From contig JACQQY010000019.1 of assembly GCA_016206825.1 (NCBI GenBank), positions 1-45,820 of the forward strand: a stretch of 45,820 nt of DNA. Direction: 5' to 3'. The number at the start of each line of letters is the position of its first letter. The first letter of the stretch is position 1. Below the pieces are notes generated by a model, which was not told where the DNA came from, searched no databases, and saw only the letters and a program-made list of their open reading frames with translations. Below are positions 6,138 through 27,217 of this stretch, one piece after another. The translations under genes and the position numbers were made by a program. Source of the DNA: Candidatus Omnitrophota bacterium. Its GTDB lineage: Bacteria > Omnitrophota > Gorgyraeia > 2-02-FULL-51-18.

Positions 6138-6144
6138 CCCCGAA

Positions 6145-7155: not shown

Positions 7156-7166
7156 TAAGAGGCCTT

Positions 7167-7898: not shown

Positions 7899-8442
7899 GC
7901 TGCGATACGCGGTCGAGGCGCTTCTTTTCGCGAGTGAACGGCCTCTTTCGGTCAAAGAGATGGGGGAGGCTTTTGGGGAGGAGGCGGATGAGAAGGCGCT
8001 GGAGGCTGGTTTACATGAGCTGAAAAACGAATACGAATCCCAAGGGAGGGGTTTTAAGCTCGTGGAGATCGCCGGCGGGTTTCAGTTGGTATCCGATCCG
8101 CGGTTCGCTTCGACCCTCAAGCGGTTTTACCAAGCCCGTGAGAAAAAGAGGCTCACCCAGGCGAGCTTGGAGACGCTGTCCATCGTCGCTTACAAACAGC
8201 CGGTGAGCCGCGCCGATGTCGAATTTATCCGCGGCGTTCAGGTGGACGGCGCTTTGAAGACGCTCTTGGAACGGAACTTGATTCGCATCGCCGGGCGGAA
8301 GGACGTCCCCGGGCGGCCGCTCCTTTATGGCACCACGCGGGAGTTTTTGGAGTATTTCGGGTTGAAAGGCCTTGAGGAACTGCCTCCACTCAAGGAGTTT
8401 ACGGAGGCGCCGCTCGAACAGGCAAAACAGGAGGAATCATGA
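7891..8442 (+). CDS. scpB: Segregation and condensation protein B
   Basis: ScpB-like winged-helix sequence (VEALLFASERPLS ... IVAYKQPVSRADVEFIRGV). ATG 7891 overlaps the scpA stop. An alternative TTG lies at 7876. Confidence 0.8.
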   Translation: MNELRYAVEALLFASERPLSVKEMGEAFGEEADEKALEAGLHELKNEYESQGRGFKLVEIAGGFQLVSDPRFASTLKRFYQAREKKRLTQASLETLSIVAYKQPVSRADVEFIRGVQVDGALKTLLERNLIRIAGRKDVPGRPLLYGTTREFLEYFGLKGLEELPPLKEFTEAPLEQAKQEES

Positions 8443-9524: not shown

Positions 9525-9529
9525 CGACC

Positions 9530-10627: not shown

Positions 10628-10643
10628 CCATGGAGAGCACAGC

Positions 10644-11660: not shown

Positions 11661-12511
11661 AAAAGCCGTTTTTTGGTAAAGTTTGCATTGTAGGCGTAGG
11701 TCTTATCGGCGGATCGATCGGAATGGCCGTCAAGAAAAGGAGATTGGCCCGGTCGGTCGCAGGGGTCGTCCGCCGGAGACAGACGGCCGAAGCCGCTTTG
11801 AAACGCAAGGCTGTGGATGAAACCGTGTTTGATTTGGCATCGGGAGTGTCCTGCGCCGATCTCGTTATTTTAAGTTCTCCGGTTCGAACCATTCTTCAGC
11901 ATCTAAAGATTTTGGATTCCCTTGTCAAACCCGGCGCTATTGTTATCGATGTCGGCAGTTCTAAGTATCGGATTGACAAGACGGCAAAGCGGCATTTAAA
12001 AAAAGCGGTGTTTGTCGGATGTCATCCCATGGCCGGATCGTCCAAGCGCGGGGTTGACTGCACGGACGCAAGTCCGGATTTGTTTCTGGGGGCCGTGTGC
12101 TTCATGACCTCCAAAAATGTGAAGATCAGGAAGTTCTGGAATTTGCTGGGTTCGAGAGTGGTGGACACCCTTTCTTCCAGGGAGCACGATGAATGGGCGG
12201 CCGGGACGAGTTATAGCACGCACGTGGCGGCTTGCGCGCTCTTAAGGGACGACGGGTTGAGGAAGCTTTTGCGGTTTAAAATGATCGCTGATAATCCAAG
12301 CTTCAAGGAGGCCGCCCGGCTCTCCAAGTGCGATCCCGATTTGTGGGCCGATATTTTATTGTCCAATCCGTATTCTGCCCGGCATGTGTTGAGCTTTGAA
12401 AAAAGCATCGCCGAATTCAGGGAGGCCCTGGCGGCCGGCGACAGGCCGAAATTAAAAAAACTAATCGCTCAAGCGAACGTTTTTTCCAACAAGCTGTCCC
12501 CGGATGAATAA
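11657..12511 (+). CDS. tyrA: Prephenate/arogenate dehydrogenase
   Basis: Rossmann motif IVGVGLIGGSIG and the GCHPMAGS block. TTG start overlapping the aroF stop. Confidence 0.8.
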   Translation: MKKPFFGKVCIVGVGLIGGSIGMAVKKRRLARSVAGVVRRRQTAEAALKRKAVDETVFDLASGVSCADLVILSSPVRTILQHLKILDSLVKPGAIVIDVGSSKYRIDKTAKRHLKKAVFVGCHPMAGSSKRGVDCTDASPDLFLGAVCFMTSKNVKIRKFWNLLGSRVVDTLSSREHDEWAAGTSYSTHVAACALLRDDGLRKLLRFKMIADNPSFKEAARLSKCDPDLWADILLSNPYSARHVLSFEKSIAEFREALAAGDRPKLKKLIAQANVFSNKLSPDE

Positions 12512-13223
12512 AAGACTCATTATAGCCATCGACGGGCCGGCGGGGAGCGGGAAATCCACCGTTGCCAAACGAATCGCGGTGAGGCTCGGAATTCCCTACA
12601 TTGATACCGGGGCGATGTACCGGGCGTTGACGCTAAGGGTTTTGCAAAAGCGAATTTCTCTTACGGATACACGGGCGTTGGTCCGGCTTTCTAAAACCAC
12701 TTCCATTGCTCTTCAAGGTTCTCACCCGGAGCGGCAAAGGGTTTTGCTGGATGGGGCGGATGTGACCCGTGAGATCAGGACGCCGGAGCTTACCCAGAAG
12801 GTTTTTTATGTGGCGCAGGTTCCGAAGGTCCGGCGGGAGATGGTCAGGAAACAGCGGACGCTGGGCGAGAAGTGCGGCGCCGTGATGGAAGGCAGAGACA
12901 TCGGGACGGTCGTTTTTCCCGATGCGGACTACAAATTTTATTTGACGGCTTCCTCCTCCGTCAGGGCCATGCGCCGTTACCGGGAGCTTATTCAAACCGG
13001 TCATTCGGCAAGCCGCAGGGAGGTTCTTGCCGATTTAAAGCGTCGGGACAAGACCGACTTGGAAAGGAAGGAGGGCCCTTTGAGAAGGGCGAAGGACGCT
13101 TTTTGGGTCCCTACGACTTCGTTGACAATTTCCCAAGTAGTTGATAAAATCCTTCAGATTATCCGGACCCATTCTGCGAAAAATCCGAAGGTTTCCGGAA
13201 GTTTTACCCTAAACAGTGTTTAA
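12504..13223 (+). CDS. cmk: Cytidylate kinase
   Basis: P-loop IDGPAGSGKST. Conserved cmk-rpsA neighbourhood. Confidence 0.9.
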   Translation: MNKRLIIAIDGPAGSGKSTVAKRIAVRLGIPYIDTGAMYRALTLRVLQKRISLTDTRALVRLSKTTSIALQGSHPERQRVLLDGADVTREIRTPELTQKVFYVAQVPKVRREMVRKQRTLGEKCGAVMEGRDIGTVVFPDADYKFYLTASSSVRAMRRYRELIQTGHSASRREVLADLKRRDKTDLERKEGPLRRAKDAFWVPTTSLTISQVVDKILQIIRTHSAKNPKVSGSFTLNSV

Positions 13224-13890
13224 AAAGCAGGCGCTTATTCAAAGACCCGGTTTCTCTTATAGAGTTGCCAGGTTTATTCTTTTTGTCTTTTACAAGATGT
13301 TTTTTCGCTTTCGGGCTTATGGCATCGAGAACGTGCCCGATCCGGCGGACGAGCGAGGGGTGATTCTGGCGCCGAATCATGCGAGTTATCTGGACCCTCC
13401 GGTGGTGGCGATTGCCCTCCGGCGTGTGGTGACTTTCCTGGCCAAGGGGTATTTGTTTCAAAAATTTTTTATAGGATCGTTTCTACGCTCGGCAGGGGTC
13501 GTTCCCATCAAGACCCGCACGGATGATTTCCGGACCATCAGGCAGATTTTGGGGATTTTAAAAGAGGGTCACTGCGTCGCCATTTTCCCGGAGGGGACCC
13601 GTTCCGTCGACGGCGCTTTCAAAAAGCCGGAAAGCGGGATCGGGTTTCTGGCTATGAAAAGCCAAGCGTACGTGGTTCCGGTTTACATTCAGGGGACGTA
13701 CGAGGTTTTGCCCAAAGGCGCCAAGTGGTTTCGGCCAAGGCCCGTGAGCGCTTATTTTGGACGTTCGTTTATACCGGCTCTTGAGAAGGATTGTCTTGAA
13801 AACCCCAGTCCTTATGAAGCCGTCGCCGAAAAGATCATGCGAGAAATAAAGAGGATGAAAGAACGGGTTGAAACCAAGTTGTCGTGTTAG
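13216..13890 (+). CDS. plsC: 1-acyl-sn-glycerol-3-phosphate acyltransferase
   Basis: Acyltransferase motifs NHASYLD (HxxxxD) and FPEGTRS. The GTG start is uncertain. Confidence 0.75.
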   Translation: MFKKQALIQRPGFSYRVARFILFVFYKMFFRFRAYGIENVPDPADERGVILAPNHASYLDPPVVAIALRRVVTFLAKGYLFQKFFIGSFLRSAGVVPIKTRTDDFRTIRQILGILKEGHCVAIFPEGTRSVDGAFKKPESGIGFLAMKSQAYVVPVYIQGTYEVLPKGAKWFRPRPVSAYFGRSFIPALEKDCLENPSPYEAVAEKIMREIKRMKERVETKLSC

Positions 13891-13916
13891 ACTCTAGGTA
13901 AGGAGGATCCGATTTT

Positions 13917-15524
13917 ATGCGGGAAAGCATTCAGCGGTTTGCGATCGATGAACCTGAAGAGGGGCAGGGAGGCAGCGTCTCGATTAATTACGAGAGCACT
14001 TTTAGGGAGATCGGAGAAGGCCGTGTGATTAAGGGGCGCATTATATTCGTTTCCCCCAAGGAAGTGGTCGTGGATATTGGGTACAAATCGGAGGGAGTCA
14101 TTCCTGCTCACGAGTTCGACCAGTTGGATTCCTTGAAAGCGGGCGATGAAATTGACGTTTTGCTGGAAGAAGCGGAGGATGAGGGGGGAAGAGTCGTTCT
14201 TTCGAGGAGAAAGGCGGAGAGAAGCCAGACGTGGGAGCGCGTCGCCGAGCAGTACAAGGAGGGGGATTTCGTTGAGGGGAGAGTCACCCGGAAGGTGAAG
14301 GGCGGTTTGATGATCGATATCGGAGTGGAAACTTTTTTGCCGGCTTCTTTAGTTTTTCTCAAGGGTTTTGGGAGTTTAAATTCGCTCATCGGGCAAACCA
14401 TTCAAGTGAGAATTGTAAAGATCACCCCTGCCCGCAAGAACATCATCGTTTCAAGGAAGGATGCCCTGGAAAAGGAAAAGCAGGAAACAAGGGCCAAGGT
14501 GCTGGAAGAGCTTCAAGCGGGAACGACCCGCAAAGGGGTCGTGAAGAACATAACCGATTTCGGAGCGTTTATCAATCTGGGCGGGATCGACGGCCTGCTT
14601 CATATTACGGATATGAGCTGGGGCCGCATCAACCATCCTTCGGAAATGTTGAAAGTGGGCGATAAAGTGGAGGTCATGATCCTTTCTTTCGACAAGGAGA
14701 GCATGAAGGTTTCGCTTGGGTTAAAGCAGAAAGAGCCGAATCCGTGGCTGGACGTGGATCAGAAGTTTCCGATAGGCACCAAAGTAAAAGGGCGCATCGT
14801 CAACGTGGTTCCGTACGGAATCTTTGTGGAATTGGCGAAAGGCATTGAGGGGCTTGTCCACGTGTCCGAAATCTCCTGGTCCAAGCGCATCACGAATCCT
14901 TCCGAAATCTTTAAGGCCGGCGATACGGTGGAGGTGATGGTCTTGAACATCGATAAGGACAACCAGAAGATTTCCCTGGGCATCAAGCAGACCGAATCGA
15001 ATCCGTGGCTGGCAGTCGAAGGGCGTTACTCCGTCGGGATGAGACTGAAGGGGGTCGTCAGGAATTTGACGGATTTTGGCGCTTTTGTGGAATTGGAGGA
15101 GGGGATCGACGGGCTTGTCCATGTTTCGGACATGTCGTGGACGCGCAAGGTCAACCATCCGCGGGACGTTTTGAAGAAAGGGCAGGAGGTGGAGGCGGTG
15201 GTTCTCATGGTGGATCCCGCCAATCGTAAGATATCCCTGGGGTTAAAGCAGTTGATTGCCGATCCGTGGGAGGAGATTGCCTCCAAACTTTCGGTCGGAT
15301 CGATTGTGTTGGGCGTCGTGACGAAAGTGGCAAGCTTCGGGGTGTTTGTGGAAATCGAGAAGGACGTAGAGGGGCTCCTCCATATTTCGGAAACCGATCT
15401 TGCTTCGGCTCAGCTTCTTGAAAGCGCGTATCCCGTCGGCAAAAAGATCCAAGCGCGCGTCATCAAGATCGACGTCTCCTCTCGAAAGATCGCCTTGAGC
15501 ACCAAAGGAGTCGGACAGATTTAA
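13917..15524 (+). CDS. rpsA: 30S ribosomal protein S1
   Basis: 535 aa made of repeated S1 domains (recurring G..V.G.V..I..FGAFV blocks). Strong SD AAGGAGGA upstream. Confidence 0.9.
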   Translation: MRESIQRFAIDEPEEGQGGSVSINYESTFREIGEGRVIKGRIIFVSPKEVVVDIGYKSEGVIPAHEFDQLDSLKAGDEIDVLLEEAEDEGGRVVLSRRKAERSQTWERVAEQYKEGDFVEGRVTRKVKGGLMIDIGVETFLPASLVFLKGFGSLNSLIGQTIQVRIVKITPARKNIIVSRKDALEKEKQETRAKVLEELQAGTTRKGVVKNITDFGAFINLGGIDGLLHITDMSWGRINHPSEMLKVGDKVEVMILSFDKESMKVSLGLKQKEPNPWLDVDQKFPIGTKVKGRIVNVVPYGIFVELAKGIEGLVHVSEISWSKRITNPSEIFKAGDTVEVMVLNIDKDNQKISLGIKQTESNPWLAVEGRYSVGMRLKGVVRNLTDFGAFVELEEGIDGLVHVSDMSWTRKVNHPRDVLKKGQEVEAVVLMVDPANRKISLGLKQLIADPWEEIASKLSVGSIVLGVVTKVASFGVFVEIEKDVEGLLHISETDLASAQLLESAYPVGKKIQARVIKIDVSSRKIALSTKGVGQI

Positions 15525-16736
15525 GTGGATTTGCATGAGACCCTCAGGTTTCTTTGCCAAAACACGGTCGACATCCTGTCGAAGGAAGAGCTGAAAACCC
15601 GCCTTTTGTCGGCCGAAAAAGAAAAGCGCCCCCTTCGAATCAAAGCGGGGTTTGATCCGACCGCTCCCGACATTCACCTGGGTCATGCGGTTCTTCTCAG
15701 GAAGCTGAGACAGTTTCAAGACTTGGGTCATCAGGTTGTTTTGATTATCGGCGATTACACGGCGATGATCGGCGATCCGAGCGGGAGGGGTCAAGTACGC
15801 CAGGCCCTGACGCGCGAGGAAGCCCTGAAGAATGCCAAGACTTACCAGGCGCAGGCCTTCAAGATTTTGGACAGCGGTTCCGACAAACTGGAGCTTGTTT
15901 TCAACAGCGGCTGGTTCTTTGATAAAGACATGTTTCGTACTTTTTTGGAGAAGGTCGGGACCTGTTACACCGTTGCCCGTCTGCTCGAGCGGGATGATTT
16001 TGAAAAGAGAATGAAGGCGAATGAACCGATCACCATCCGCGAGTTTATCTATCCCTTGCTTCAGGGCTATGATTCCGTGAAGGTTCGATCGGATGTGGAG
16101 ATAGGCGGCACGGATCAAAAGTTCAATCTTCTTGTTGGGCGTAACTTGCAGAGAGCCTATGGCATGGAGCCTCAGGTTGTGATGACGATGCCGCTCCTTG
16201 TCGGTTTGGATGGAGTTCAGAAGATGTCCAAATCGCTCGGCAATTATGTGGGAGTCGCCGAGTCTCCCAAGGACGTATTTGGAAAGATCATGTCCATTCC
16301 CGACGGTTTGATGGAAATGTACTTTGATTTGCTGACCCCATGGGAAGGGCGTAAGATTTCGAAGGAGATACAGGAGAAAAAAGTTCATCCGAAGGAGGCA
16401 AAGAAGAGGCTTGCTTCTTTTATTGTTTCCTGGCTTTTTGGGGAAAGAAAGGGAGAGGAAGAGGCGGAAGAATTTGACAGAGTTTTTAGCGCCAAGGCGC
16501 TTCCAAAGGCGCTTTCTGAATTAGAGCTTGACGAGACAACCATTTGGATCGTGGAGCTTTTGAAGCGAGCCGGCATGTCTTCAACAGGCGGCGAGGCGAG
16601 AAGGCTCATTGAGCAGGGGGCCGTGGCTCTCGATGGTAAAAAGGTCACCGACCCCAAAGCGCACGTCGGGGTAAAAACAGGGAGCGTTTTGAAGGCAGGA
16701 AAGGTTCGATTCGTGCGGTTAAAAGTGAGAAAATAA
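15525..16736 (+). CDS. tyrS: Tyrosyl-tRNA synthetase
   Basis: DIHLGH (HIGH) and KMSKSLGN motifs, with a C-terminal S4-like domain. GTG start directly after the rpsA stop. Confidence 0.9.
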   Translation: MDLHETLRFLCQNTVDILSKEELKTRLLSAEKEKRPLRIKAGFDPTAPDIHLGHAVLLRKLRQFQDLGHQVVLIIGDYTAMIGDPSGRGQVRQALTREEALKNAKTYQAQAFKILDSGSDKLELVFNSGWFFDKDMFRTFLEKVGTCYTVARLLERDDFEKRMKANEPITIREFIYPLLQGYDSVKVRSDVEIGGTDQKFNLLVGRNLQRAYGMEPQVVMTMPLLVGLDGVQKMSKSLGNYVGVAESPKDVFGKIMSIPDGLMEMYFDLLTPWEGRKISKEIQEKKVHPKEAKKRLASFIVSWLFGERKGEEEAEEFDRVFSAKALPKALSELELDETTIWIVELLKRAGMSSTGGEARRLIEQGAVALDGKKVTDPKAHVGVKTGSVLKAGKVRFVRLKVRK

Positions 16737-16747
16737 TAACTCCGAAA

Positions 16748-19700
16748 ATGGACATGTTAAGAAATAAGAAAAATAAGAAAACCATGAAAGCCGGAAGGGC
16801 TATTTTTTCTCTCACTTCCTCATATCTTTTAAAAATTATCGCTGTTTTTCTTGTTGGTTCCCTCACTTTCGAGCAGTTCGCCTTCGCCTTTCCGGAAAAG
16901 AGGGTGGTGGGTAGTGGGTCGTGGGTGGTGGATGGGAAAAAAGAAGAAAAACTTGCAGGTTTTCGTCTGCCCGAATCGATCGCTTCCGTAGAAGATTCTT
17001 ATTTTCCTTCACCCACCACCCACAACCCACCACCCACGAGCCTGGTTTACCTCCTCCAAGACCCCCATACCAATTTCTCCGGGCAAATAAACTTAGCCAA
17101 AACCATTGATTGGGTTGTGGGTAGTGGGTCGTGGATTGTGGATAAAGAAAAAGCCCCAAAAGGTTTCACCCGCCACCCTTTCTACGTCTTCTTAGAAGCA
17201 GGCCAAGGCAACCACACCCTATCTTTCCTAAAAAAATACGCCTCCAAAGAAAAAACAAAAGAAATCGCTGAAAACTTCTTAAGGCAAGGTAAACTCCATG
17301 GAAGTGAATACCTCAATCTTACCTCAGACTACGACGTCACTCTCTGGGGAGTGGAGAATCTCCCGCTTTATTTTAAAGCTCTGGAAAGCTACAAGAAGAC
17401 AGCCTCCCAGAGAAACAAATTCCAAAGCTACCTAACCCAAATAGAATCCGCAATCAACGCTCTAAAACCAAGAATCTACAACCCTTCCGCCTATACCCTT
17501 GATAAGCAAAAAGACAAGTACGAAAAAGGAGAGTTGTCTCTGGCGGAATACTTTGAAGTTCTTTCCAATAGCTCAGAACACACCAAAACCTTCCCTCACC
17601 TTAAACTTCTAAACAAACTAAAGAAACTGGAAGACTCCATCGATTTCAACAAAGCCCGGGAAGAAGAACAAAAAGCCATCCACTCCCTTTCCATCCAAGA
17701 CCAAAAAGAATTAAAAGACCTCGCCCAATCCACCATGAAGCCTCTACAACGGCTTAACTCCAAAGAAGACCAAGCCTTCTTCTTTCTCGTGGAGGAAAAA
17801 CTAAATTCCAGACTTCCAGCGTACCCCCATCTTTCAAGTTACTTCCATTACCTAAAACTCTCAAAGAAACTCAAAGCCAACAACCTCTTAAAAGAACTAA
17901 AAGCCCTTGAAGCCCAGGCCTTTGATTCCTTGCTCATTAGCCAGGATGAAAAGACCCTCTTTCGTTCTTCCAAGACGCTGTCACTTCTCAAGAAGCTCTT
18001 TAACTTTCAACTGACTCCGGAAGAATGGCAAGAGTACCAGAAGCTTAAAGAAGAATGGATTCAAATCCCCCCCGCCCCCTTTCAAATAAAAAGGGGGTTG
18101 CTCTTTAGCTCTTTTTCTTTAAGTAAAAGAAAGCCCTTACCCCCTTTTCCTTTCAAAGGGGGCAGGGGGGATTTTATCACCGCCCTCACAGGCTTCCTCA
18201 ACAAGAAAATCATGGATTTTAAGGATTATTACAGGGAAACCGTGTTTCTTGAACCCGGCTTCGAAAAAATCGAGAAAGAAGCGGAAGCCTTCTATGACCT
18301 CACCTTCCAAAGAGACCAGGCTTTCATTCAAAACATGCTCCACAAACTCTCTCAAAGCTCTCAAATCCCCCCTGCCCCCTTTGAAGGGAAAAGGGGGTTG
18401 GTCGGGTTGGTTGAACCCCAGCGAACCTCACCCCCTTTTCTTCTTAAAGGGGGCAGGGGGGATTTAAACCCCTCCACCCACCACCCTGTTTTCCTCATGA
18501 CCGGAGGTTTTCATACTCCCAATCTCAAGAAACTCTTAAAAGAAAAAGGAATCTCCTACGTCGTCATCACTCCCCAAGTCTTCCACGAAACCAACCAAAA
18601 GCGCTACGAGAAGCTTCTCTTAAGCCGGGACCTTTCTTCGAAGCCCTTCACCCACGCCATTCCCCTTGGCCTGACACGTCCTTCTTACATCGGCGTTGAT
18701 CTTTTGCTGTACAAAGGAGATCTAGCCCATGGTTTTGCCAATACCGGGGAAGAGCTAAACTCAAAAGAAGAAGAAAGAGCGATCCTCGAAGAAATGAAAC
18801 GCCGCCTTGGAGGAAGAGACCCCCAAGTGGCCGAGCAAGGTTCTGTTCGTCCCACGGGGACGGGAGCGAGGCTGGCTTTGGAAGATCAAAAAATTCAAGT
18901 TTCAAGCTCTGGCCCTAAGGATGCAAGAATTGACCCAAAAGCTGGCAGGTTGACTCTTGCCAAAACTTTTATCAATTTTCTAAAGGCTTACTTTATTGTT
19001 GGGCTGGTTATTTTTTTCTGCTCCTGTAATTTGGGGCATCAAGATAAGAATGTTCAAAAGAACGCCTTGTCTCTCGCCGGAGAAACAAACATTCCCAAAG
19101 ACTTAGAATCTCTAAAACCCTTCTTGGAGCATCAAAATGACGATGTTCGGTCTGACGCCTGGCTTTTCGCCGGAGGAACAAACCTTTTCAAAAACTTGGA
19201 ATCTCTGAAACCATTGTTAGAGCATAAGGATGCGAATATTCGATCAGAAGCCTGGTTTCTTGCCAGAGAAAAAAACTTTTTCAAAGACTTGGAATCTCTA
19301 AAACCCTTCTTGGAGCATCAAAATGTCGGTGTTCAGGTTAGAGCCTGGTCTCTCGCCAAAGAAACAAACCTTTTCAAAGACTTAGAATCTCTAAAACCCT
19401 TGTTGGAGCATCAAGATAGCTATGTTCAGTCCACAGCCTGGTCTCTCGCCCGAGAAACAAACCTTTTCAAAGACTCGGAATCTCTAAAACCCTTCTTGGA
19501 ACATCAAAATGGCTATGTTCAGTTTAGAGCCTGCTCTTTCGCTCGAGAAACAAACCTTTTTAAAGACTTAGAATCTCTAAAACCCTTGTTGGAGTATCAA
19601 AATAGCTATGTTCAGTCCACAGCCTGGTCTCTCGCCAAAGAAACAAACCTTTTTAAAGATTTGGAATCTCTAAAGCCCTTCTTGAAACATCAAAATAACG

Positions 19701-22700
19701 ATGTTCGGTGTAAAGCCTGGTCTCTCGTCCGAGAAACAAACCTTTTCAAAGATTTGGAATCTCTAAAGCCCTTTTTATACGATAAAGGCAGGATAGTTTA
19801 TAAAGATGCGGTTTACTGTTTATCTGAATGTAAACTCTTTGAGAAAGAAAAAGACCTGAGCCCTTATTTAAAAGATACAAACCACCTAGAAATTGCTTGT
19901 GAGGCCTTAAAAGTTCTTATTGAAAGAAAAGAGTTTTCTTTGGACCCTTACGAAAACCTCCTCCGAGCCATTTCTATTGCCGAATACGATGCTGGGCATG
20001 GTTCCTTTGTCAATAAACCTAACAGTGAACTTTTTACGGAATTATACTCCCAATTTATTTCCAGGTTAAACAATCACTATGCTCAAAATAAGCTTACCCC
20101 TCTCCAAGAACTCGAAGATATCGGACTGCCCGTCCTTCACACACTTTCTTACTACAAGGAATACCTTAAAACCCTCCAAGAAGAAGACCGGCTTCTTTTT
20201 ACCAGAAAAGTTGCCGATCTCATCGTGGAGCAAAGAACGGCTCATCAAGATAAAATAATGATTGGAAGCGGTATGAAAGTCATTGTAGCGGCCCATGGAG
20301 AGCTTGGAGAAGGAGACTTGAGATTTGCGGATGCGAAGTTTATGAAGTTTCTTAAACAAATCACCGGTTTGGAAACTATCCCCGTTTTTAGAGGCTCCGA
20401 GGAAGACGTTAAGACCACCCAAGAAAAAAACAAATACCTCAAAGAACTGGAAGAGCTTTCAAGACAAAAAAAAGAATGTGTAATCATTGATCTTGGCCAT
20501 GGAGGCAAAGAGCATTTTTGGTTTTCCGGTGGACAGATAGAGAGTGAAGAGTCGGCCTCTCCTTATCATCCATTGGCCGTGAGTTTTAGGGAATATGCCG
20601 AAGCCTTTGTGAAGGGGCAGTCCCAAGAAAAAGAAATAGATCTTTCACACATCGCTATCATTCAGTCCGCTTGTTATCAGTATGATCTTGTTGAGAGGAT
20701 GTTCCAAGAGATTCTAAAGGTCACCAAGGAAGAGAAAAAATCCGTCAAATCACTTCCATTTGTTATGACACTAGCCAATAAAAACAGATTTGGTTTGTCA
20801 AATAAGCCAGGTACTTATACCTCAGAGCCTATTTTCAATGCCATTTATTCTCTTCGATTAAGGCATGGAATTCCTGTTCGTTTAAAGCACCTCTATCAAA
20901 TAGATCAAATGATTCGAGGAGAGGGTGGGCAAAACCCGGCTATTTTTATACCGATCGACCCACTCAAAGTCCAAGAGAAATTAGGGCTTCCCAAGGAAGT
21001 GGAAATAAAGCCGTTTCTTGAAATCGGCGCAAGATTAGCCCAACCCGGATCCCGCCCCGAGGAACTCACAGAAGTTTCTGCACAAACCCAAACCGGACGG
21101 GGTCCCGAAAAGGCGAAAGGGGACACGTTAGCCAAGGGGTCAAGTCTAGACAATAGACAAAGCGGTGTTAAGGTGCCGGAGTTGGGGGGCATGCGGTCAG
21201 GAGGAGATTTGACCCCTTCCGCAGGGACCGGCCTCTTCTCTAGTGAGAGTGCCGGTGGCGGTAGTATTGCTCTACCTTCATCGCCACGTAAAAGCCGACG
21301 AAGGTTAGAAGAATCACCGCTGAAAAGAATATTAGCGACTTTTCATCCACTTTTCTTTTCCTCCTCTGGTTGGAGTATGAATCCTGATAAAATCAAGCCG
21401 GCAAATATGACACCCAATATTATCACCCATACGGTAACACATCCATTGAGTGAAATCAAACCAAGCATGTGGACTGGCAATAAGGAGAAGGTTTCTACCG
21501 GCGCGAGGCTGGCGGGGCGGGTGCCGGGGTATTTTAAGAATCCGGACTTTCCTGAGTTCCGGGATTGGCTGCTTTCTTCGGATTCGCCGCTGACTGAGAG
21601 AGAGAAGGAGTTTTTGAAGATCCGTTATTGGTGGGGGGACGCCGGGACGGTTCAATCGTTAAAAGAGGTGATCTCAAAAAAAGAAATTCGTTCCAGACTT
21701 GGCTTGGGAAGGTGGGGAATAGCAAGGCTTTCCGCTCATTTGCGGCGGAAGATAAAAGAGCTTTACCGCCTGCGCCATGCACAAAAAGGATTTTATCCTT
21801 CAAACGAAGGGGAAACGGCCGCCGGCGTCAACTTTTTGCAGAGCTCTGGTTCAAGACCGGCAAAGGTGAACCACTCCAAGAATGCCGGGGCGAGGCTGGG
21901 GGAGAAAGAAAGTCAGGTTTCAGGGGCTGACCCCTTGATCGAACCCTCTTTATTAAAAGCGTGGTGGTTTGGGCGGGCTCATCGGTATGCGGCGGCGATG
22001 GGGGTTCCCGAGAAGAAAGCGTGGGAGGTGATCGACCGCGTTTTGGAGAGGTCGTCGTGGTTTGCCTGGAAGCGCGTTTGGCGAAAGGTGTGGATGGAAG
22101 AGGCCCTGAAAGAAAGCGAAGACATTATCTTGAAAGCGAACATGATTTACACCGCAAAAAGCTTTGTTTCAAGAGAAACTTCTTTTACCAATGAGGAAAA
22201 GGAAATATTCAAAGAAGCTCATGAACGGTATTTTCGTCTGAAAAACGGCGGGAAAGCCCGGATAGAACATGACGTCGAAATCCCTTCGAAAAATTTTGAT
22301 TATCCAATCCCGGCGGACTTCCTTCTTCCTCCTAACGCTTCAGGCTCGCATCCGGTTCCGGCGGTCATTCTCGTGCATGGGATGACTCACACGCGGTTTG
22401 AACCGGATCTTAATCCCTTGGTGAGGCGATTGCTGGAGAAAGGGATCGCCGTTTTGCGCGTCGAGCTTCCTTCCCATGGGGACAACCAAAATCGATTCAA
22501 AAAACCAGATGATCTCGATTGGATGGTGAAAGACTCGCTCGATTATCTTAAGAAAGATCCAAGAATCAAATCAGCGGCGATAGGCATCGCGGGTTTTAGT
22601 TTTGGAGCTTACGTGGTATTGAGATCGATTTTGGATGAGAAGATCGCTCCTTATTTGCGCGGTTTTGCGGCCATAGCGCCTCCCGCGATCCGCACGCTTA

Positions 22701-25700
22701 CTTCGTTTGTCCATCTGGTCGTCATTTTGCGCCCGATGAAATCGCAATTGATGAGAGTTTTTGGGGAGCGCTTTTCTTGGCCGCTGCACTCTAAGATTTC
22801 GAAGCTGGCGTTAAATGAAAATAGACTGCTGGAGCTGACCCAGGATACGCCGAGTTTGGAAAAGATCGCCGTGGTGTCGATGGGAAGCGACAGAGTGATT
22901 CACGATGCTGACATTAAAATTCTCTTTGAGGTTTTTGGAAAAGGACCGTCCCAGTATCGATTTTTTAAAAAGGCCTCCCATAACCTTATTGGCCAAGACA
23001 GGCAAGAAGCCGACGCGTTCATTGCCGACCATTTTGAGAAAGCCTTGGGATCAAATGGCGCGAGGTTGGGGGTGAAAGAAAGTGTCAAAAGTCAACGACT
23101 GACCCCAGAACCAAAAGAGGAAAAAAAGAAAGAAGCCGGTGCCCGGCTGGCAATTAATCAGCTTCTTATGTCAGCGGCTAAGGAAGATGTCTATGACAAA
23201 GCGGAAAGAGCGTTTCAGCTTTATCAACAAACGCCCCAGGGCAAACCATCGTTAACATCTGATGACAGAATTAGTTTGGAAACTCTGACCATTCTTCTGC
23301 TTAAAGCTTCACACGCCCAAGCAGGAGAACAGTCTATGTGGGCGCGGTTCTTTTGCCAAATAGATTCTGTTCGAAGAGCATGGCAAGAGCAGCACTTTCC
23401 AGGTGTTATCGAATGGCTGCAAAATTTCTCGGGGGATTCGGTTGTGGCTCAGGCACTCACAAGGTTTGGAACACAGACAAGGCTATCCGATCAGTCTCTT
23501 CCTGCCAAGGTGTCAGAAATTGTATTAGCCGATACATCCGGAGAAGGCAAAGATCTCATCGCCATCCCTACGGTCCAAGACGCATCAAAAACGAAAGAGT
23601 TTATCATGATTTTGAAACCACCTACATCATTTAATCCGGAAACCATTATTGAAATTGTGAAAAGGCTCATTTATTTCGGATACCACGTCGTAGGAATCAG
23701 AGTTTATTCGGGAGAACATTTTGCCGCGCATCCTGAAATCATTGGAAGCCAATACATGGAAGCTTGGGAAGGCTGTCAAAATGGAATTCAAAAAGCGGAA
23801 GAATGGGCCGAGATCAGAAGAATCTACGACACGGATGAGTTTGAAGCGACATTCGGTGAGCGTTACAGTGATCAAATGGTAATTCCAGCCGCTGAATTAG
23901 GAAAACGCTATGGATTTTCCAACGAAGAAATTACGGCTCTATGGGAAAGAGGAAGACGAGAAGCTTTATTTCATAATGGCCGCGCCACAGGCTTAAATAA
24001 GGTAGGCTCAGGGCGAAGCGTTTTTCCGGTCAAAGATCCACGAATCAACAGTGGCAGACCCATCATCATGGTTAATGGCTATGTGCCCAGTTTATTGAAA
24101 CTTTTCCAGGGGCCTGATGCCAGGACAGTGGTTTTTCTGATAAGGAATAGGGAGGATGTTCAGTTCCCTATGTCATGGGAATCTCTTCGCAAACAATTGC
24201 TTGGAAATGAAAATGATCCAAGCGCCAACCCTGCCGGCAGTATACGAAGAGATGCATGGACGGGAAATTTGCCGGTCAGACTTCAAGGCGTCTTGAACGG
24301 ACAAAAAAATGTGGCCCACCTCAGTTCGGGTCCGCTCGAAGGCTTGCGAGAAGCTCACATCATGATGGGGCGTGCCATTCAAGATGCGCCCTTTGGTCAA
24401 CAACTTCTTGCGGCAGGTTATCCAGAATCCCAAATCAAGTATCTCATGGGAAACCCAAAAGTGAGGTATTTGAATAAAGCAACCGGAATGTATGCTGTGG
24501 AATCACTTTTTCGATTGACGGAGTATCGAGAACCCAAAGAAGCTCTAGCAATCATCCTCGAATATTTTCCGCCGTATCGCGAATCAAATCCAGATTTAGC
24601 TTCAAGCGTTCCGTTTGACGAGTTTCTGGAAATACAACAAGCCTACCAGGAAGGAAGTTTGTCCGTGCGAACTAACCGCGTACAGGCGAATGTCGTCCAG
24701 ACATCCAGCGTCGAGCCAATCTACTTTCCTGGAATACCCGAAGATGAGATGAGGCGTCTCAATGAGACAGGCGTTGCCGGATTTCAGGCAGGAGAAGCGG
24801 CGCTTATTGTTCCCGGAGGCGGCACAGGAGGGCGTTATGGTGGTTACCATCTTCCGGAAAGTCATCCTGACCGCCAGAAGGTGTTGGCAAAAGCGCTTGA
24901 GGCAGCAAATGGCCTGCGAAGTCCCTTAGAAGTCAGAGCGGCGCACGTCCTGTGGTGGTCTCGTCATCATCAAGCAAAAATTCCGATTTTAATCATGGGA
25001 AATGAATCGAACCTTCCAGCCATAAATGACGCGCTGGAAGAAAATGACTATTACGGCCTTAATCCGAAACAAGTCGACGCCTATCAGCAAAACGGTATTT
25101 ACAGAATCAATCCTATGGCTAATGATTTATCCGGCCAGTCTGATGCCGCGCTGATTTTAGCCTCAAATGGAGAACCTGGTGGAATCTTTCGGGACGATGA
25201 GGGTCATGTCAGCGCTAAGCCTGCGGGTCACGTAGAAATTATTGCTCAGGCCGTCTTAAACCGCCGTCTCCTGAAACTGGCTCGACAAGGCGTCAAAGTG
25301 CTTGTAACCGCAAATGGGGATGATATGAGATTCCTCTTGGATCCTGCAAAGATTGCCTATTTCATGGAAAGTCCTGAGCAAATGATGGCTGTCCTAGCCT
25401 TAAAAGATGTGACTTATGCCATTCAAGTCTCAGGTCAAAAACATCGTTTGATTGTGCGAGGCCAAAAAGTCGTGCAATCAAGCTTGCCGAAGGAATTTCA
25501 TATCGAGATAGATGGAAACCAAGCACTGAAAATCACTCAAGACGGCAATCTCGTGGATATAGCCATTGAAAGTAAAAAAGTGGAAAAAGGCGGATCCCTG
25601 GTGGACTTGAAAGGTACTGATGAAATCCGGAGGCCTGTGATTCTCGAGGGGCCGGCGTTTCCAGACGAGGCAGACCAAGGTCAATTTCCGTACTTCAACA

Positions 25701-27217
25701 CCAATCAGTTGTATTTCAAAGTTGATGCGCTTCTTCAGTTTTTTGGTATCAGCAATTTAGATGAGTACGAAAGGATGCCACAAAAAGAACTGGCTCATCG
25801 AGTCAGGACGGCTTTATCCCAATTACCTCTTTATGTCGAAATAAAAGATGTCATTACTTCCGGAGAAGATACAAAGGAGCCTCAAACACGCAAAGCAGCC
25901 CAAGTTGTCAGGCTTATAGGAGATTTCAGCCGTGTTTTCAAGACTCGTTACATTACAATTGATCGAGATGGCGAAGAAGGCGTAGGAGGATATGGAGCGC
26001 TCAAAGAAAAACAAGATACCACCGCCGCTTCGCATTGGCTCGAGGAAACCAACAACAAACAGAGAATATTTTTATTCGACCCAACTCCGGGAAAAAGTGA
26101 ATTTAATCCTACGCCGGTTGTTGCTCTTACAATAACTACAACTACAAGCGCTTCCAGTTCGCCTTACCCTCACAAAGATGACGTCAAGGAAGGACTTGAG
26201 CCCTTTGCGAACAATCAATCCAAAAATCCTGTCGTTTTAAACCAAGGCTCCCCCATCGAACAAAAAGACGAGCTCATCTTCGCTTTGAACGTCTACGACA
26301 ATACACGCAAAGAAGGTTACTTCGCGCTTGCCCGAAAACCGGAAGGGACGCCCGATATTCTTGGAATTGAGTTTAATAAAGAAAAGAATACCGTCATCGT
26401 TCATTTTAGCGGCCAAAAGAAAGTCGAAGTTAAAAATTACAGAGCCATTCTTCAGAGAAAAAGGACAGCCCGGCATTATGAGAAGGGAAGTCTTGTTTTA
26501 TCGAGAAAAGAGCTGATTCTCTCGGATATCGCTTTTGAGCTTAAAGAAGAGACGCTCGCCGTCGAAGAAAAGGCCAAGGGTCTCATCACCAACTCCCCTA
26601 AACTCTTGAAACTCAAGCTTCCCGGATTTATGAATGAAAACACCAAGACCACCGATGCCCTCTTTGTCGACTGGCTTATTCACGCCGCCCATAAGGCCAA
26701 GAGAGACAACGCGCTTCTTCTTTTGGAAGAAGGAAGCAGTTTCCGGATGGCGGAGATTCTGAAGAGGGCCTCCAAACTCTATCCGACAGAAAGATTTGTC
26801 TATTCCAGTGAACAAGAATTGCCCGAATCCCACAAAAATGCCAAGAGCGTCACGCTAACAGCCTTCAATCCTGAAGAGGCCCCCCACTTAGAAGAAAACC
26901 AGCTTTACCTCATCTCCCAAACCCTTGAAAAGGGCGCCATGCATAACCTGACGGCTCTTATTCAGACAGCTCTCGTTGAAGCGGAGGTGGGCCTTGAGGG
27001 AATGAGGGCAGACAACCCTCAATTTGACGGATTCAGAAATGTTTATGAAGCCCTGGGCGTGAAGATAGGGGATGACATCAACGGCTTTATCCAATTCACC
27101 AAAGGCATCGGCTTAAACCCACAGAAGATGGAACAGTGGGCCATCCCTTTTCACCGTGTCGATGAAATGCTGAGAGCTTATGCTCTGGGCGCCCGCATGG
27201 CTGAGCAGTCGGCGTAA
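16748..27217 (+). CDS. Giant multidomain protein (3,489 aa), hypothetical; signal-peptide-bearing modular protein, possibly a polyprotein
   Basis: Single stop-free frame of 10,470 nt. N-terminal basic plus hydrophobic segment ending AFA|FP. Recognisable modules are listed as separate 'other' features. Seven G-A-R-[LM]-[AG] junction motifs. No obvious SD; the ATG lies 11 nt after the tyrS stop. Confidence 0.8.
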   Translation: MDMLRNKKNKKTMKAGRAIFSLTSSYLLKIIAVFLVGSLTFEQFAFAFPEKRVVGSGSWVVDGKKEEKLAGFRLPESIASVEDSYFPSPTTHNPPPTSLVYLLQDPHTNFSGQINLAKTIDWVVGSGSWIVDKEKAPKGFTRHPFYVFLEAGQGNHTLSFLKKYASKEKTKEIAENFLRQGKLHGSEYLNLTSDYDVTLWGVENLPLYFKALESYKKTASQRNKFQSYLTQIESAINALKPRIYNPSAYTLDKQKDKYEKGELSLAEYFEVLSNSSEHTKTFPHLKLLNKLKKLEDSIDFNKAREEEQKAIHSLSIQDQKELKDLAQSTMKPLQRLNSKEDQAFFFLVEEKLNSRLPAYPHLSSYFHYLKLSKKLKANNLLKELKALEAQAFDSLLISQDEKTLFRSSKTLSLLKKLFNFQLTPEEWQEYQKLKEEWIQIPPAPFQIKRGLLFSSFSLSKRKPLPPFPFKGGRGDFITALTGFLNKKIMDFKDYYRETVFLEPGFEKIEKEAEAFYDLTFQRDQAFIQNMLHKLSQSSQIPPAPFEGKRGLVGLVEPQRTSPPFLLKGGRGDLNPSTHHPVFLMTGGFHTPNLKKLLKEKGISYVVITPQVFHETNQKRYEKLLLSRDLSSKPFTHAIPLGLTRPSYIGVDLLLYKGDLAHGFANTGEELNSKEEERAILEEMKRRLGGRDPQVAEQGSVRPTGTGARLALEDQKIQVSSSGPKDARIDPKAGRLTLAKTFINFLKAYFIVGLVIFFCSCNLGHQDKNVQKNALSLAGETNIPKDLESLKPFLEHQNDDVRSDAWLFAGGTNLFKNLESLKPLLEHKDANIRSEAWFLAREKNFFKDLESLKPFLEHQNVGVQVRAWSLAKETNLFKDLESLKPLLEHQDSYVQSTAWSLARETNLFKDSESLKPFLEHQNGYVQFRACSFARETNLFKDLESLKPLLEYQNSYVQSTAWSLAKETNLFKDLESLKPFLKHQNNDVRCKAWSLVRETNLFKDLESLKPFLYDKGRIVYKDAVYCLSECKLFEKEKDLSPYLKDTNHLEIACEALKVLIERKEFSLDPYENLLRAISIAEYDAGHGSFVNKPNSELFTELYSQFISRLNNHYAQNKLTPLQELEDIGLPVLHTLSYYKEYLKTLQEEDRLLFTRKVADLIVEQRTAHQDKIMIGSGMKVIVAAHGELGEGDLRFADAKFMKFLKQITGLETIPVFRGSEEDVKTTQEKNKYLKELEELSRQKKECVIIDLGHGGKEHFWFSGGQIESEESASPYHPLAVSFREYAEAFVKGQSQEKEIDLSHIAIIQSACYQYDLVERMFQEILKVTKEEKKSVKSLPFVMTLANKNRFGLSNKPGTYTSEPIFNAIYSLRLRHGIPVRLKHLYQIDQMIRGEGGQNPAIFIPIDPLKVQEKLGLPKEVEIKPFLEIGARLAQPGSRPEELTEVSAQTQTGRGPEKAKGDTLAKGSSLDNRQSGVKVPELGGMRSGGDLTPSAGTGLFSSESAGGGSIALPSSPRKSRRRLEESPLKRILATFHPLFFSSSGWSMNPDKIKPANMTPNIITHTVTHPLSEIKPSMWTGNKEKVSTGARLAGRVPGYFKNPDFPEFRDWLLSSDSPLTEREKEFLKIRYWWGDAGTVQSLKEVISKKEIRSRLGLGRWGIARLSAHLRRKIKELYRLRHAQKGFYPSNEGETAAGVNFLQSSGSRPAKVNHSKNAGARLGEKESQVSGADPLIEPSLLKAWWFGRAHRYAAAMGVPEKKAWEVIDRVLERSSWFAWKRVWRKVWMEEALKESEDIILKANMIYTAKSFVSRETSFTNEEKEIFKEAHERYFRLKNGGKARIEHDVEIPSKNFDYPIPADFLLPPNASGSHPVPAVILVHGMTHTRFEPDLNPLVRRLLEKGIAVLRVELPSHGDNQNRFKKPDDLDWMVKDSLDYLKKDPRIKSAAIGIAGFSFGAYVVLRSILDEKIAPYLRGFAAIAPPAIRTLTSFVHLVVILRPMKSQLMRVFGERFSWPLHSKISKLALNENRLLELTQDTPSLEKIAVVSMGSDRVIHDADIKILFEVFGKGPSQYRFFKKASHNLIGQDRQEADAFIADHFEKALGSNGARLGVKESVKSQRLTPEPKEEKKKEAGARLAINQLLMSAAKEDVYDKAERAFQLYQQTPQGKPSLTSDDRISLETLTILLLKASHAQAGEQSMWARFFCQIDSVRRAWQEQHFPGVIEWLQNFSGDSVVAQALTRFGTQTRLSDQSLPAKVSEIVLADTSGEGKDLIAIPTVQDASKTKEFIMILKPPTSFNPETIIEIVKRLIYFGYHVVGIRVYSGEHFAAHPEIIGSQYMEAWEGCQNGIQKAEEWAEIRRIYDTDEFEATFGERYSDQMVIPAAELGKRYGFSNEEITALWERGRREALFHNGRATGLNKVGSGRSVFPVKDPRINSGRPIIMVNGYVPSLLKLFQGPDARTVVFLIRNREDVQFPMSWESLRKQLLGNENDPSANPAGSIRRDAWTGNLPVRLQGVLNGQKNVAHLSSGPLEGLREAHIMMGRAIQDAPFGQQLLAAGYPESQIKYLMGNPKVRYLNKATGMYAVESLFRLTEYREPKEALAIILEYFPPYRESNPDLASSVPFDEFLEIQQAYQEGSLSVRTNRVQANVVQTSSVEPIYFPGIPEDEMRRLNETGVAGFQAGEAALIVPGGGTGGRYGGYHLPESHPDRQKVLAKALEAANGLRSPLEVRAAHVLWWSRHHQAKIPILIMGNESNLPAINDALEENDYYGLNPKQVDAYQQNGIYRINPMANDLSGQSDAALILASNGEPGGIFRDDEGHVSAKPAGHVEIIAQAVLNRRLLKLARQGVKVLVTANGDDMRFLLDPAKIAYFMESPEQMMAVLALKDVTYAIQVSGQKHRLIVRGQKVVQSSLPKEFHIEIDGNQALKITQDGNLVDIAIESKKVEKGGSLVDLKGTDEIRRPVILEGPAFPDEADQGQFPYFNTNQLYFKVDALLQFFGISNLDEYERMPQKELAHRVRTALSQLPLYVEIKDVITSGEDTKEPQTRKAAQVVRLIGDFSRVFKTRYITIDRDGEEGVGGYGALKEKQDTTAASHWLEETNNKQRIFLFDPTPGKSEFNPTPVVALTITTTTSASSSPYPHKDDVKEGLEPFANNQSKNPVVLNQGSPIEQKDELIFALNVYDNTRKEGYFALARKPEGTPDILGIEFNKEKNTVIVHFSGQKKVEVKNYRAILQRKRTARHYEKGSLVLSRKELILSDIAFELKEETLAVEEKAKGLITNSPKLLKLKLPGFMNENTKTTDALFVDWLIHAAHKAKRDNALLLLEEGSSFRMAEILKRASKLYPTERFVYSSEQELPESHKNAKSVTLTAFNPEEAPHLEENQLYLISQTLEKGAMHNLTALIQTALVEAEVGLEGMRADNPQFDGFRNVYEALGVKIGDDINGFIQFTKGIGLNPQKMEQWAIPFHRVDEMLRAYALGARMAEQSA
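16902..17143. repeat. G-tract / C-tract inverted repeat set inside the 5' end of the giant ORF
   Basis: GGGTGGTGGGTAGTGGGTCGTGGGTGGTGGATGGG (16902-16935). Its approximate reverse complement is CACCCACCACCCACAACCCACCACCCACGA (about 17010-17039). A second G-rich copy lies at 17112-17143. They are translated as VVGSGSWVVD / PTTHNPPPT / VVGSGSWIVD. Confidence 0.75.
18063..18174. repeat. Family-A palindromic element inserted in-frame in the giant ORF (copy 1)
   Basis: AAATCCCCCCCGCCCCCTTT ... AAAGGGGGCAGGGGGGATTT. Read through as IPPAPFQIKRGLLFSSFSLSKRKPLPPFPFKGGRGDF. Confidence 0.85.
18363..18465. repeat. Family-A palindromic element inserted in-frame in the giant ORF (copy 2)
   Basis: AAATCCCCCCTGCCCCCTTT ... 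AAAGGGGGCAGGGGGGATTT. Read through in the same frame as IPPAPFEGKRGLVGLVEPQRTSPPFLLKGGRGDL. Confidence 0.85.
19088..19831 (+). repeat. Eight tandem 93-nt (31-aa) HEAT-like coding repeats
   Basis: Units start at 19088, 19181, 19274, 19367, 19460, 19553, 19646 and 19739. Consensus NLFKDLESLKPFLEHQNxxVxxxAWSLAxET. A partial unit lies before 19088 and degenerate units after 19831. Confidence 0.85.
20260..20720 (+). other. Caspase-fold (clan CD)-like cysteine peptidase module of the giant protein
   Basis: Hydrophobic strand plus His-Gly (CVIIDLGHGG, His1251 at 20498-20500), and hydrophobic strand plus Cys (IAIIQSACYQ, Cys1309 at 20672-20674), 58 aa apart. An earlier strand reads KVIVAAHGE. Motif-level evidence only. 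Confidence 0.45.
21515..21886 (+). other. Sigma-70 region-4/LuxR-like helix-turn-helix module of the giant protein
   Basis: LTEREKEFLKIRYWWG...SLKEV...LGLGRWGIARLSAHLRRKIKELY resembles the L.eRer.vl.lry...s..eIa..lg.s...v......a..kLr pattern. Bounded by GARLA (21500) and GARLG (21887). Confidence 0.35.
22260..23056 (+). other. Alpha/beta-hydrolase module of the giant protein
   Basis: VILVHG strand; nucleophile elbow G-F-S-F-G (Ser1951, 22598-22600); GSDRVI (Asp2048, 22889-22891); ASHNL (His2078, 22979-22981). The order is the canonical Ser-Asp-His. Confidence 0.6.
23594..24400 (+). other. Nucleoside-diphosphate-kinase-like module with a large insertion
   Basis: KEFIMILKP (compare ERTFIMIKPD), LLGNENDPSANPAGSIRRDAW (compare GaTnP..A.pGTIRgDf) and KNVAHLSSGPLEGLREAHIM (compare N.iHGSDS.e.A.rEi; His2524 at 24317-24319). 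The first and last blocks are about 240 aa apart, versus about 105 in canonical NDK. Confidence 0.5.
24690..26050 (+). other. UDP-sugar pyrophosphorylase (UDPGP family)-like nucleotidyltransferase module
   Basis: LIVPGGGTGGRYGG (compare LNGGLGTsMG), AKPAGHVEI, VTANGDD and PYFNTNQLYF (compare FNTNN). Confidence 0.55.

Follow-up and report, generated by a model that had tools for sequence, protein, structure and literature searches.

The window analysed here is a stretch of 45,820 nucleotides (nt) from a Candidatus Omnitrophota bacterium (contig JACQQY010000019.1, assembly GCA_016206825.1), and its plus strand carries an open reading frame (ORF) of 10.5 kb that encodes a giant protein of 3,489 amino acids (aa). 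A first-pass annotation of the window had pointed to a caspase-like His/Cys dyad, His1251 and Cys1309, inside this protein, and had named the surrounding domain as the natural candidate to act on GAR[LM] motifs in the same chain. We found that this region very probably has the fold and the His/Cys dyad of a clan CD cysteine peptidase, and that the GAR[LM] motifs are dispersed along the protein, one of them abutting the end of the protease domain (Table 1). The domain covers about 330 residues; its N-terminal subdomain (aa ~1100-1166) is helical and is followed by an alpha/beta core.

The three strings on which the dyad had been recognized, KVIVAAHGE (aa 1177-1185), CVIIDLGHGG (aa 1244-1253) and IAIIQSACYQ (aa 1302-1311), are exact in both letters and numbering. 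His1251 and Cys1309 are indeed 58 residues apart, and the following GARLA starts at aa 1427, 118 residues past Cys1309. The span first assigned to the module (20260-20720) holds the catalytic core, but the whole domain is wider and extends over about nt 20045-21025 (aa 1100-1426).

We searched 1.84 billion representative proteins exhaustively with phmmer, using aa 1100-1430 as the query and a cut-off of E ≤ 1e-3, and obtained 90 homologous proteins, the best with an E of 2.6e-40. In a hidden Markov model alignment of all homologous domains, His1251 was kept in 91 of 91 and Cys1309 in 92 of 92. The Gly after the His (88/90) and the small residue, Ala or Ser, before the Cys (76/92), both read earlier from the single sequence as hallmarks of clan CD, proved to be features of the family as well. 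A MAFFT alignment of 44 domains (alignment A1) contains exactly three invariant columns, namely His1251 (H152), Cys1309 (C210) and Pro1337. Within KVIVAAHGE, His1183 is kept in 72/88 domains, with Asn in 13, and Glu1185 is present as Glu or Asp in 77/88. The position two residues before the Cys (Cys-2) is Asp in 64/92 family domains, D[AS]C being the commonest form, and is Ser1307 in the window protein. A loose pattern, in which a hydrophobic run plus HG is followed after 30-70 residues by a hydrophobic run plus [AGS]C, has one match in the real protein and is matched in 0.28% of 5,000 shuffles. Since this pattern was defined post hoc, we regard the conservation as the decisive evidence.

Taking A1 as the input alignment, we modeled the domain with AlphaFold2 and obtained a mean pLDDT (predicted local distance difference test) of 92.5 and a predicted template-modelling score of 0.91; the single-sequence model was poor (pLDDT 41). 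The model passes from the helical N-terminal subdomain through b1 (KVIVAA), a1, b2, a2 and b3 (CVIIDL) to His1251, then through small strands, a3 and b4 (IAIIQS) to Cys1309, and on through a4, b5, a5 and b6 (AIFIP) to a short helix and the final strand FLE (aa 1423-1425). His1251 directly follows the strand at aa 1244-1249 and Cys1309 directly the strand at aa 1302-1307, in agreement with the placement behind hydrophobic strands that had been proposed for both. The clan CD fold is an alpha/beta/alpha sandwich with a central six-stranded sheet and five flanking helices. Our model has the sandwich fold, with His before Cys and each of them on a loop after a core strand. The same order of elements has been described for caspases, where the dyad sits on the loops after b3 and b4, and in clan CD the S1 pocket is formed in part by loop L1 (PMC4357240).

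When the model was compared with the PDB by Foldseek, 15 matches reached E ≤ 1e-3, the best having an E of 5e-6 and a probability of 1.00, and the top matches had target-normalised template-modelling scores of 0.45-0.55. Almost all of the 50 matches listed belong to clan CD, among them caspase-11, -4, -7, -9, -1 and -8, CED-3, SAVED-CHAT, legumain, metacaspase-9 and the Raptor caspase-like domain, with the caspases ranked above legumain. The model did not fall into a non-peptidase fold and the dyad is conserved among homologues, and the clan CD interpretation is therefore supported.

Family-level matches were weaker. The best enzyme match of the A1 profile among PDB sequences was the GPI transamidase PIGK, at an E of 0.064 that is not significant, and the family's GHGG and IIDxC stood opposite its His164 and Cys206 (counted from the printed alignment). 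The 44 members, compared singly with Pfam, gave weak matches with clan CD families foremost: Peptidase_C13 (PF01650) was the commonest (7/44 members, best E 1.1e-3), and there were also Peptidase C25 (3/44), Peptidase C14 (PF00656; 2/44, best E 4.9e-4), Raptor_N (2/44) and Peptidase C11 (PF03415), the last matched by a single member with the best E of all these weak matches, 5.6e-5. The NCBIfam model 'caspase, EACC1-associated type' was weakly matched by 8/44 members (best E 5.4e-4). The homologue P0074 reached 20.1 bits (E 5.3e-4) against PF03415, under the gathering score of 25.8, and the window domain itself had no match to C13, C11 or C14 in Pfam.

The protease domain alone had no match in Pfam or NCBIfam and none in PDB sequences by phmmer; a word-index homologue search with the domain returned nothing, nor did its repeat with A1, and tblastn against plasmids was also empty. 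A narrower alignment (A2) found three genome loci and two metagenome loci, none above 32% identity. Relatives in genomes of the Genome Taxonomy Database come from one Omnitrophota and two Planctomycetota metagenome-assembled genomes, and two cluster members of the family come from DPANN-type archaea. All named cluster members that we checked are called 'hypothetical protein', and ten full-length short homologues showed no significant Pfam domain. The protease domain is previously unannotated. Since the matches to known families are all weak or below threshold and the relatives carry no annotation, we read the domain as a new clan CD peptidase family, found in Omnitrophota, Planctomycetota and DPANN archaea.

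About 16 of the 90 homologues are giants of 2,000-8,000 aa with the protease domain inside the chain. Most of the remaining ones have 600-1,100 aa with the domain at the C-terminus, and many of them carry Sec- or Tat-type signal peptides. Among homologues P0005-P0090, a tail motif h-h-E-[IVL]-[GAS] (PFLEIG, YLEIS, VIEIA) lies 10-20 residues before the C-terminus in most stand-alone proteins. It could be an autoprocessing or sorting signal; the simpler reading, suggested by the model, is that it forms the last structural beta-strand of the domain. One giant, P0075 (3,828 aa), has two copies of the domain, of which the upstream one is degenerate, with HG lost and the Cys in the context VTC; a pseudo-protease may here be combined with an active one.

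We then examined the GAR[LM] sites of the window protein. There are seven, where 0.107 would be expected and none of 20,000 shuffles had more than 2; the remaining proteins encoded in the window, 10,811 residues in all, contain one. At all sites the L/M is followed by a small residue (A or G). The sites lie between recognisable modules, in surroundings with 50-83% hydrophilic or small residues per side versus 58% protein-wide. Gly is written with four different codons, Arg with AGG, AGA, CGG and CGC, and Leu with CTG, TTA and TTG, and the Ala codons vary as well; this synonymous variety argues for selection on the peptide and not on the DNA. Sites 5 and 6 are 27 residues apart from start to start, with 22 residues between them (aa 2109-2130, window 23072-23137), and cutting at both would set free a small peptide rich in lysine and glutamate. 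A reading of 'GA' as a double-glycine site of C39 type was set aside: the leader consensus expected upstream of such a site is missing, and this reading would not explain why R-[LM]-[AG] is conserved.

In scans of the whole protein, Pfam and NCBIfam recognized HEAT repeats at aa 763-835 and an alpha/beta-hydrolase at aa ~1858-1992, and beyond these only a marginal stretch resembling UDPGP; the protein has 11 cysteines in total. The protease domain is the C-terminal part of a module of about 720 residues that runs from GARLA-706 through a membrane helix and the HEAT repeats to the protease and GARLA-1427, a layout that matches the stand-alone homologues of 600-1,100 residues in other organisms. 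The helix at aa 740-758 is predicted to be the membrane anchor or signal of this module, and in the HEAT-like region between it and the protease ESLKP recurs every 31 residues. Behind GARLA-706 (window 18878-19030, aa 711-761), a basic stretch is followed by TFINFLKAYFIVGLVIFFC-SC, resembling a signal or lipoprotein leader. A cut at site 1 would put this leader-like segment close to the new N-terminus.

Several further segments of the giant protein were noted. An N-terminal domain without a Pfam match (aa 65-438 and 580-626; window 16940-18061 and 18485-18625) is common to P0002, P0007, P0020, P0025, P0042, P0050, P0052, P0087 and P0088, and is a second conserved element of the giant-protein family. 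Within aa ~446-585 (window ~18083-18500) the series 'IPPAPFxxKRGL ... PPFxxKGGRGD' is present in two copies at a distance of about 100 residues, and both copies of this duplication terminate in an RGD tripeptide. The C-termini are similar in the window protein (window 27140-27214), P0001, P0007, P0009, P0012, P0020, P0050, P0075, P0087 and P0088, with an amphipathic stretch and then [S/T/A][A/L]-COOH (EQSA, LESA, SRSA, EHSA, AVAA, ETAA, LRSL). We presume that these C-termini may be similar to the C-terminal signals of type I secretion.

Table 1. Features of the giant gene and its product (positions in nt of the window)
Feature	Position	Strand	Basis or remark
Giant ORF	16748..27217	+	ORF list and translation; houses every feature listed below
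GARLA site 1, aa 706-710, N-terminal border of protease module	18863..18877	+	Transmembrane-like helix 34 residues on
Hydrophobic helix, aa 740-758, TFINFLKAYFIVGLVIFFC	18965..19021	+	Kyte-Doolittle mean 2.00 over 19 residues
HEAT-like repeats, period 31 residues (aa ~763-1040)	19034..19867	+	Pfam HEAT_2 29.5 bits, above cutoff
Clan CD-type (caspase-fold) cysteine peptidase domain, aa 1100-1426	20045..21025	+	Homologues, AlphaFold2 model, Foldseek
Strand beta1 and loop L1, KVIVAAHGE (aa 1177-1185)	20276..20302	+	Model strand, segment residues 78-83
Candidate catalytic His1251 codon, motif GHGG	20498..20500	+	Invariant 91/91; aligns to PIGK His164
Candidate catalytic Cys1309 codon, motif SAC	20672..20674	+	Invariant 92/92; aligns to PIGK Cys206
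PFLEI, aa 1422-1426, last beta-strand of domain	21011..21025	+	Model strand, segment residues 324-326, block pLDDT ~91
GARLA site 2, aa 1427-1431, abuts protease domain end	21026..21040	+	
GARLA site 3, aa 1585-1589	21500..21514	+	
GARLG site 4, aa 1714-1718	21887..21901	+	
GARLG site 5, aa 2104-2108, after alpha/beta-hydrolase module	23057..23071	+	
GARLA site 6, aa 2131-2135	23138..23152	+	
GARMA site 7, aa 3481-3485, nine residues from C-terminus	27188..27202	+	

The giant gene is compositionally atypical, or foreign, for its locus. Its GC content is 46.0%, versus 53.6% and 54.5% in the flanks, and at third codon positions 46.8%, versus 60-71% in tyrS, rpsA and argJ; the lowest value within the gene, 40.6%, is found in the protease module (18863-21025). 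All scanned neighbours are housekeeping genes on the same strand, with proS, rimP, nusA, infB, trpS, scpAB, pheA, aroF, tyrA, cmk, plsC, rpsA and tyrS upstream, and rplM and then arg genes downstream. The adjacent tyrosyl-tRNA synthetase (TyrRS) has 55-63% identity to Candidatus Omnitrophica proteins and at most 66% to anything in the database. We looked for orthologues of the giant gene by synteny through the closest TyrRS relatives (64-66% identity). In their loci the entire upstream gene order is kept, no giant gene is present 3' of tyrS, and genes for FecR-like and CHASE2-GGDEF proteins are found there. Together with the atypical composition, this suggests that the giant gene is a lineage-specific insertion or acquisition.

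Dispersed motifs of other sequence were present in related giants. P0001 contains [KR][SA]ELR 15 times against 0.71 expected; RSE[MVI][RK] occurs 13 times in P0007 (0.92 expected), five times in P0009 (0.67) and four times in P0020 (0.56); and P0012 contains [GA][KR]SLG eight times. The 15 sites of P0001 are written with five Leu, six Arg and four Ser codons, implying selection at the peptide level here as well. The motif-bearing giants have unrelated cargo. In BLASTP among the six proteins, the protease domain was the only shared region and was present in every matching pair, P0012 matching only the window protein and P0001 at the threshold.

The positions of the sites are also alike. In the window protein, P0001, P0007, P0009 and P0020, a site lies 0-30 residues past the last strand of the protease. 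Sites delimit a protease unit at aa 707-1427 of the window protein, 1584-2192 of P0001 and 1551-2155 of P0007; in each unit a membrane helix comes first, 14-34 residues past the site on the upstream side, and these units share their architecture with the stand-alone homologues. Among 12 internal transmembrane (TM) helices in four proteins, eight have a site no more than 60 residues before them, versus 1.66 expected (P ~1e-4). The copy of the motif at the C-terminus co-varies with lineage, reading LGARMAEQSA in the window protein and LSELRVLESA in P0001.

The gene for P0001, the closest giant homologue, lies at positions 4445-16924 of its locus (L004) among the housekeeping genes thiG, Iso_dh (a Pfam name; isocitrate/isopropylmalate dehydrogenase family), asd and truA. 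Its cargo includes a PPDK_N (pyruvate phosphate dikinase-type) domain, implying that the cargo of these giants is metabolic-enzyme-like and not toxin-like.

We consider it fairly probable that the domain is an active clan CD protease that processes its own giant chain at the GAR[LM][AG] sites. The proposal that it acts on these motifs, first made from the single protein, gains support from the comparison of related giants, and we lean toward this domain as the leading candidate for such processing. We infer catalytic activity of the domain, cleavage at the sites and the domain's role as the enzyme responsible for it. In the proposed mechanism, aa ~1100-1426 would act as a caspase-fold cysteine endopeptidase with His1251 as the general base and Cys1309 as the nucleophile, and would recognise the seven linker sites of its own chain. 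The first cut would be made in cis at site 2, which abuts the protease's own last beta-strand. Further cuts would then free the N-terminal domain, the anchored protease module, small modules, the alpha/beta-hydrolase and a large C-terminal enzyme-like module, and several of these pieces would begin just before a membrane helix.

Which bond would be cut can be read in two ways. The cut could fall after Arg (GAR↓L), as with C11, C25 and metacaspase-type enzymes, or after Leu/Met (GARL↓A), as with the cysteine protease domain (CPD) of MARTX toxins, which takes Leu at P1 and a small residue at P1'. In a 5-mer alignment of the three motif types, an aliphatic residue occupies position four throughout, which supports GARL↓A, SEL↓R and KSL↓G, with a CPD-like P1. 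Each motif type also has an invariant basic residue; this, together with the Asp that most family members carry at Cys-2, speaks for GAR↓L, SELR↓ and GK↓SLG.

Some observations weigh against self-processing at these sites. The basic and aliphatic residues are never both in register across the motif types, which leaves P1 ambiguous, and the Cys-2 position, where the S1 Asp of PmC11 lies (PMC4850288), is Ser in the window protein versus Asp in 64/92 domains. A clear dispersed motif is present in only about 6 of the about 16 giant homologues, with no obvious one in P0002, P0042, P0052, P0075 and L001. The giants that we compared were all chosen for carrying the protease domain. Many stand-alone homologues have Sec or Tat signals, so that the family may normally target other, extracytoplasmic substrates. 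Moreover, with one predicted N-terminal and one predicted internal helix, the protease and the downstream sites of the window protein may be cytoplasmic, a compartment unlike that of the secreted homologues.

The most substantial alternative, which is rather unlikely in our judgement, is an active clan CD peptidase with other substrates, such as envelope, prey or partner proteins, the GAR[LM] motifs being cut by another enzyme or serving as uncleaved linker or docking elements. It would account for the many stand-alone, secreted (Sec/Tat) homologues that have no dispersed motif to process, and for the giant homologues without a clear motif, which are the majority; moreover, the published candidates for processing giant Omnitrophota proteins are C39 and S8 peptidases. 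However, neither of these nor any other peptidase family was detected in the window protein with Pfam and NCBIfam, in five giants a site lies at or shortly behind the end of the protease domain, and the protease is the sole element common to the motif-bearing proteins. Another alternative, which we hold to be improbable, accepts that the domain cuts the motif and makes it mainly a transpeptidase or ligase of the GPI8/PIGK, PorU or legumain type that transfers the module to an acceptor, for example an envelope component. The best PDB sequence-profile match, PIGK (E = 0.064, with the dyad aligned), and the prevalence of Peptidase_C13 among Pfam matches (7/44) agree with this, as do the small residues that follow the sites and the motif copy nine residues from the C-terminus, which would be pointless for simple release of a module. 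Yet all C13 and PIGK matches are below significance thresholds, caspases rank above legumain in Foldseek, and the window shows no sign of acceptor or partner subunits, the scanned neighbours being housekeeping genes throughout.

Two other explanations would remove the processing altogether. The domain would be a non-catalytic caspase-like scaffold, comparable to the N-terminal domain of Raptor, if His1251 and Cys1309 were structural, and Raptor and other pseudo-caspases do appear among the fold and Pfam matches. We regard this as very improbable, since the His, the following Gly and the Cys are kept across about 90 divergent sequences (20-35% identity), as expected of catalytic residues. It is hardly credible, finally, that the GAR[LM] repeats are nucleic-acid signals, whether as a DNA repeat or as ribosome-binding sites inside the gene together with start codons. 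Four sites do read GCGAGG, which is Shine-Dalgarno-like, and the Leu or Met at the fourth residue offers possible start codons, but GAGG abuts the Leu codon without a spacer, one Leu is TTA, Arg and Gly are each written with four codons, and the codons of P0001 are varied as well. Both nucleic-acid readings were rejected on this codon evidence.

We put it just short of probable that in Omnitrophota and related phyla certain giant ORFs encode genuine cellular polyproteins, self-cut by the new clan CD family at lineage-specific, co-evolving sites of five residues, namely GAR[LM][AG], [KR][SA]E[LVMI]R or [GA][KR]SLG. Because many sites lie just upstream of a TM helix, the freed modules would each gain their own N-terminal anchor or signal. 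A giant gene would then act like an operon translated as one chain, and maps of cleavage sites could be read straight from sequence. Whether such proteins act as a single chain or as cut pieces is an open question in the papers that describe Omnitrophota giant proteins. Our finding supplies a candidate enzyme with two mutable residues, candidate sites in at least six proteins and a predicted set of products, and thereby makes the question experimentally testable. Clan CD in turn gains an unannotated family that spans Omnitrophota, Planctomycetota and DPANN archaea.

Built-in cutting of these proteins has been raised before. Two papers on giant Omnitrophota proteins, one of them West-Roberts et al. 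2023 (bioRxiv 10.1101/2023.11.21.568195), considered possible self-cleavage by C39 and S8 peptidase domains; the 2023 paper describes the cleavage points as unknown and reports no cleavage sites, and neither paper mentions caspase-like or legumain-like domains. Our literature search found no publication linking Omnitrophota or Omnitrophica with clan CD peptidases. The C39 and S8 candidates concern the same question of built-in cutting, and the window protease belongs to a different peptidase clan.

The closest functional analogue is the CPD of MARTX and large clostridial toxins (MEROPS C80). The MARTX CPD is a clan CD domain within a giant toxin and cuts after Leu at several inter-domain sites (PMC3153235). 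The window domain is likewise a His/Cys clan CD protease inside a multi-module protein of several thousand residues, with short sites between the modules. With a specificity for Leu at P1 and a small P1' residue (PMC3153235, PMC4357240), the C80 CPD offers a precedent with which GARL↓A, GARL↓G and GARM↓A are compatible, P1 Arg being equally so. C80 was not matched in Pfam scans of the window protein, the domain or the family members, nor was it among the 50 Foldseek matches listed. In contrast to the CPD, the window domain is larger and has a helical N-terminal subdomain, the cargo consists of housekeeping-like enzymes instead of toxin effectors, the host is an Omnitrophota bacterium, and the site motifs of the family are five residues long and lineage-specific. 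Inositol hexakisphosphate, which activates the C80 CPD through its beta-flap, is a eukaryotic cofactor and is not expected in the Omnitrophota setting.

Among bacterial enzymes, PmC11 of the clostripain family (C11) is a clan CD peptidase with an extended sheet that processes itself, and its Asp at Cys-2, the S1 residue behind the Arg/Lys specificity of both PmC11 and clostripain, makes the S1 pocket acidic (PMC4850288). In the new family most members have D-[AS]-C, whereas the window protein has Ser at Cys-2 and differs in His-Cys spacing and in the C-terminal region. Legumain and GPI8/PIGK (C13) resemble the family in that GHGG and IDxC align to PIGK His164 and Cys206, but with E-values of 0.064 and ≥1e-3 the matches lack significance, a C-terminal prodomain of legumain type is not evident, and the candidate sites contain neither Asn nor Asp. 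Viral polyprotein proteases such as picornavirus 3C and coronavirus Mpro are unrelated in fold and clan, and here the gene lies on a cellular chromosome; the likeness is in organisation, in that a single translated chain contains its protease and the short cognate sites between modules co-vary with the protease lineage. Taken together, the kind of system proposed here, an embedded autoprocessing protease of a giant multi-module protein, is already known, and the family is new.

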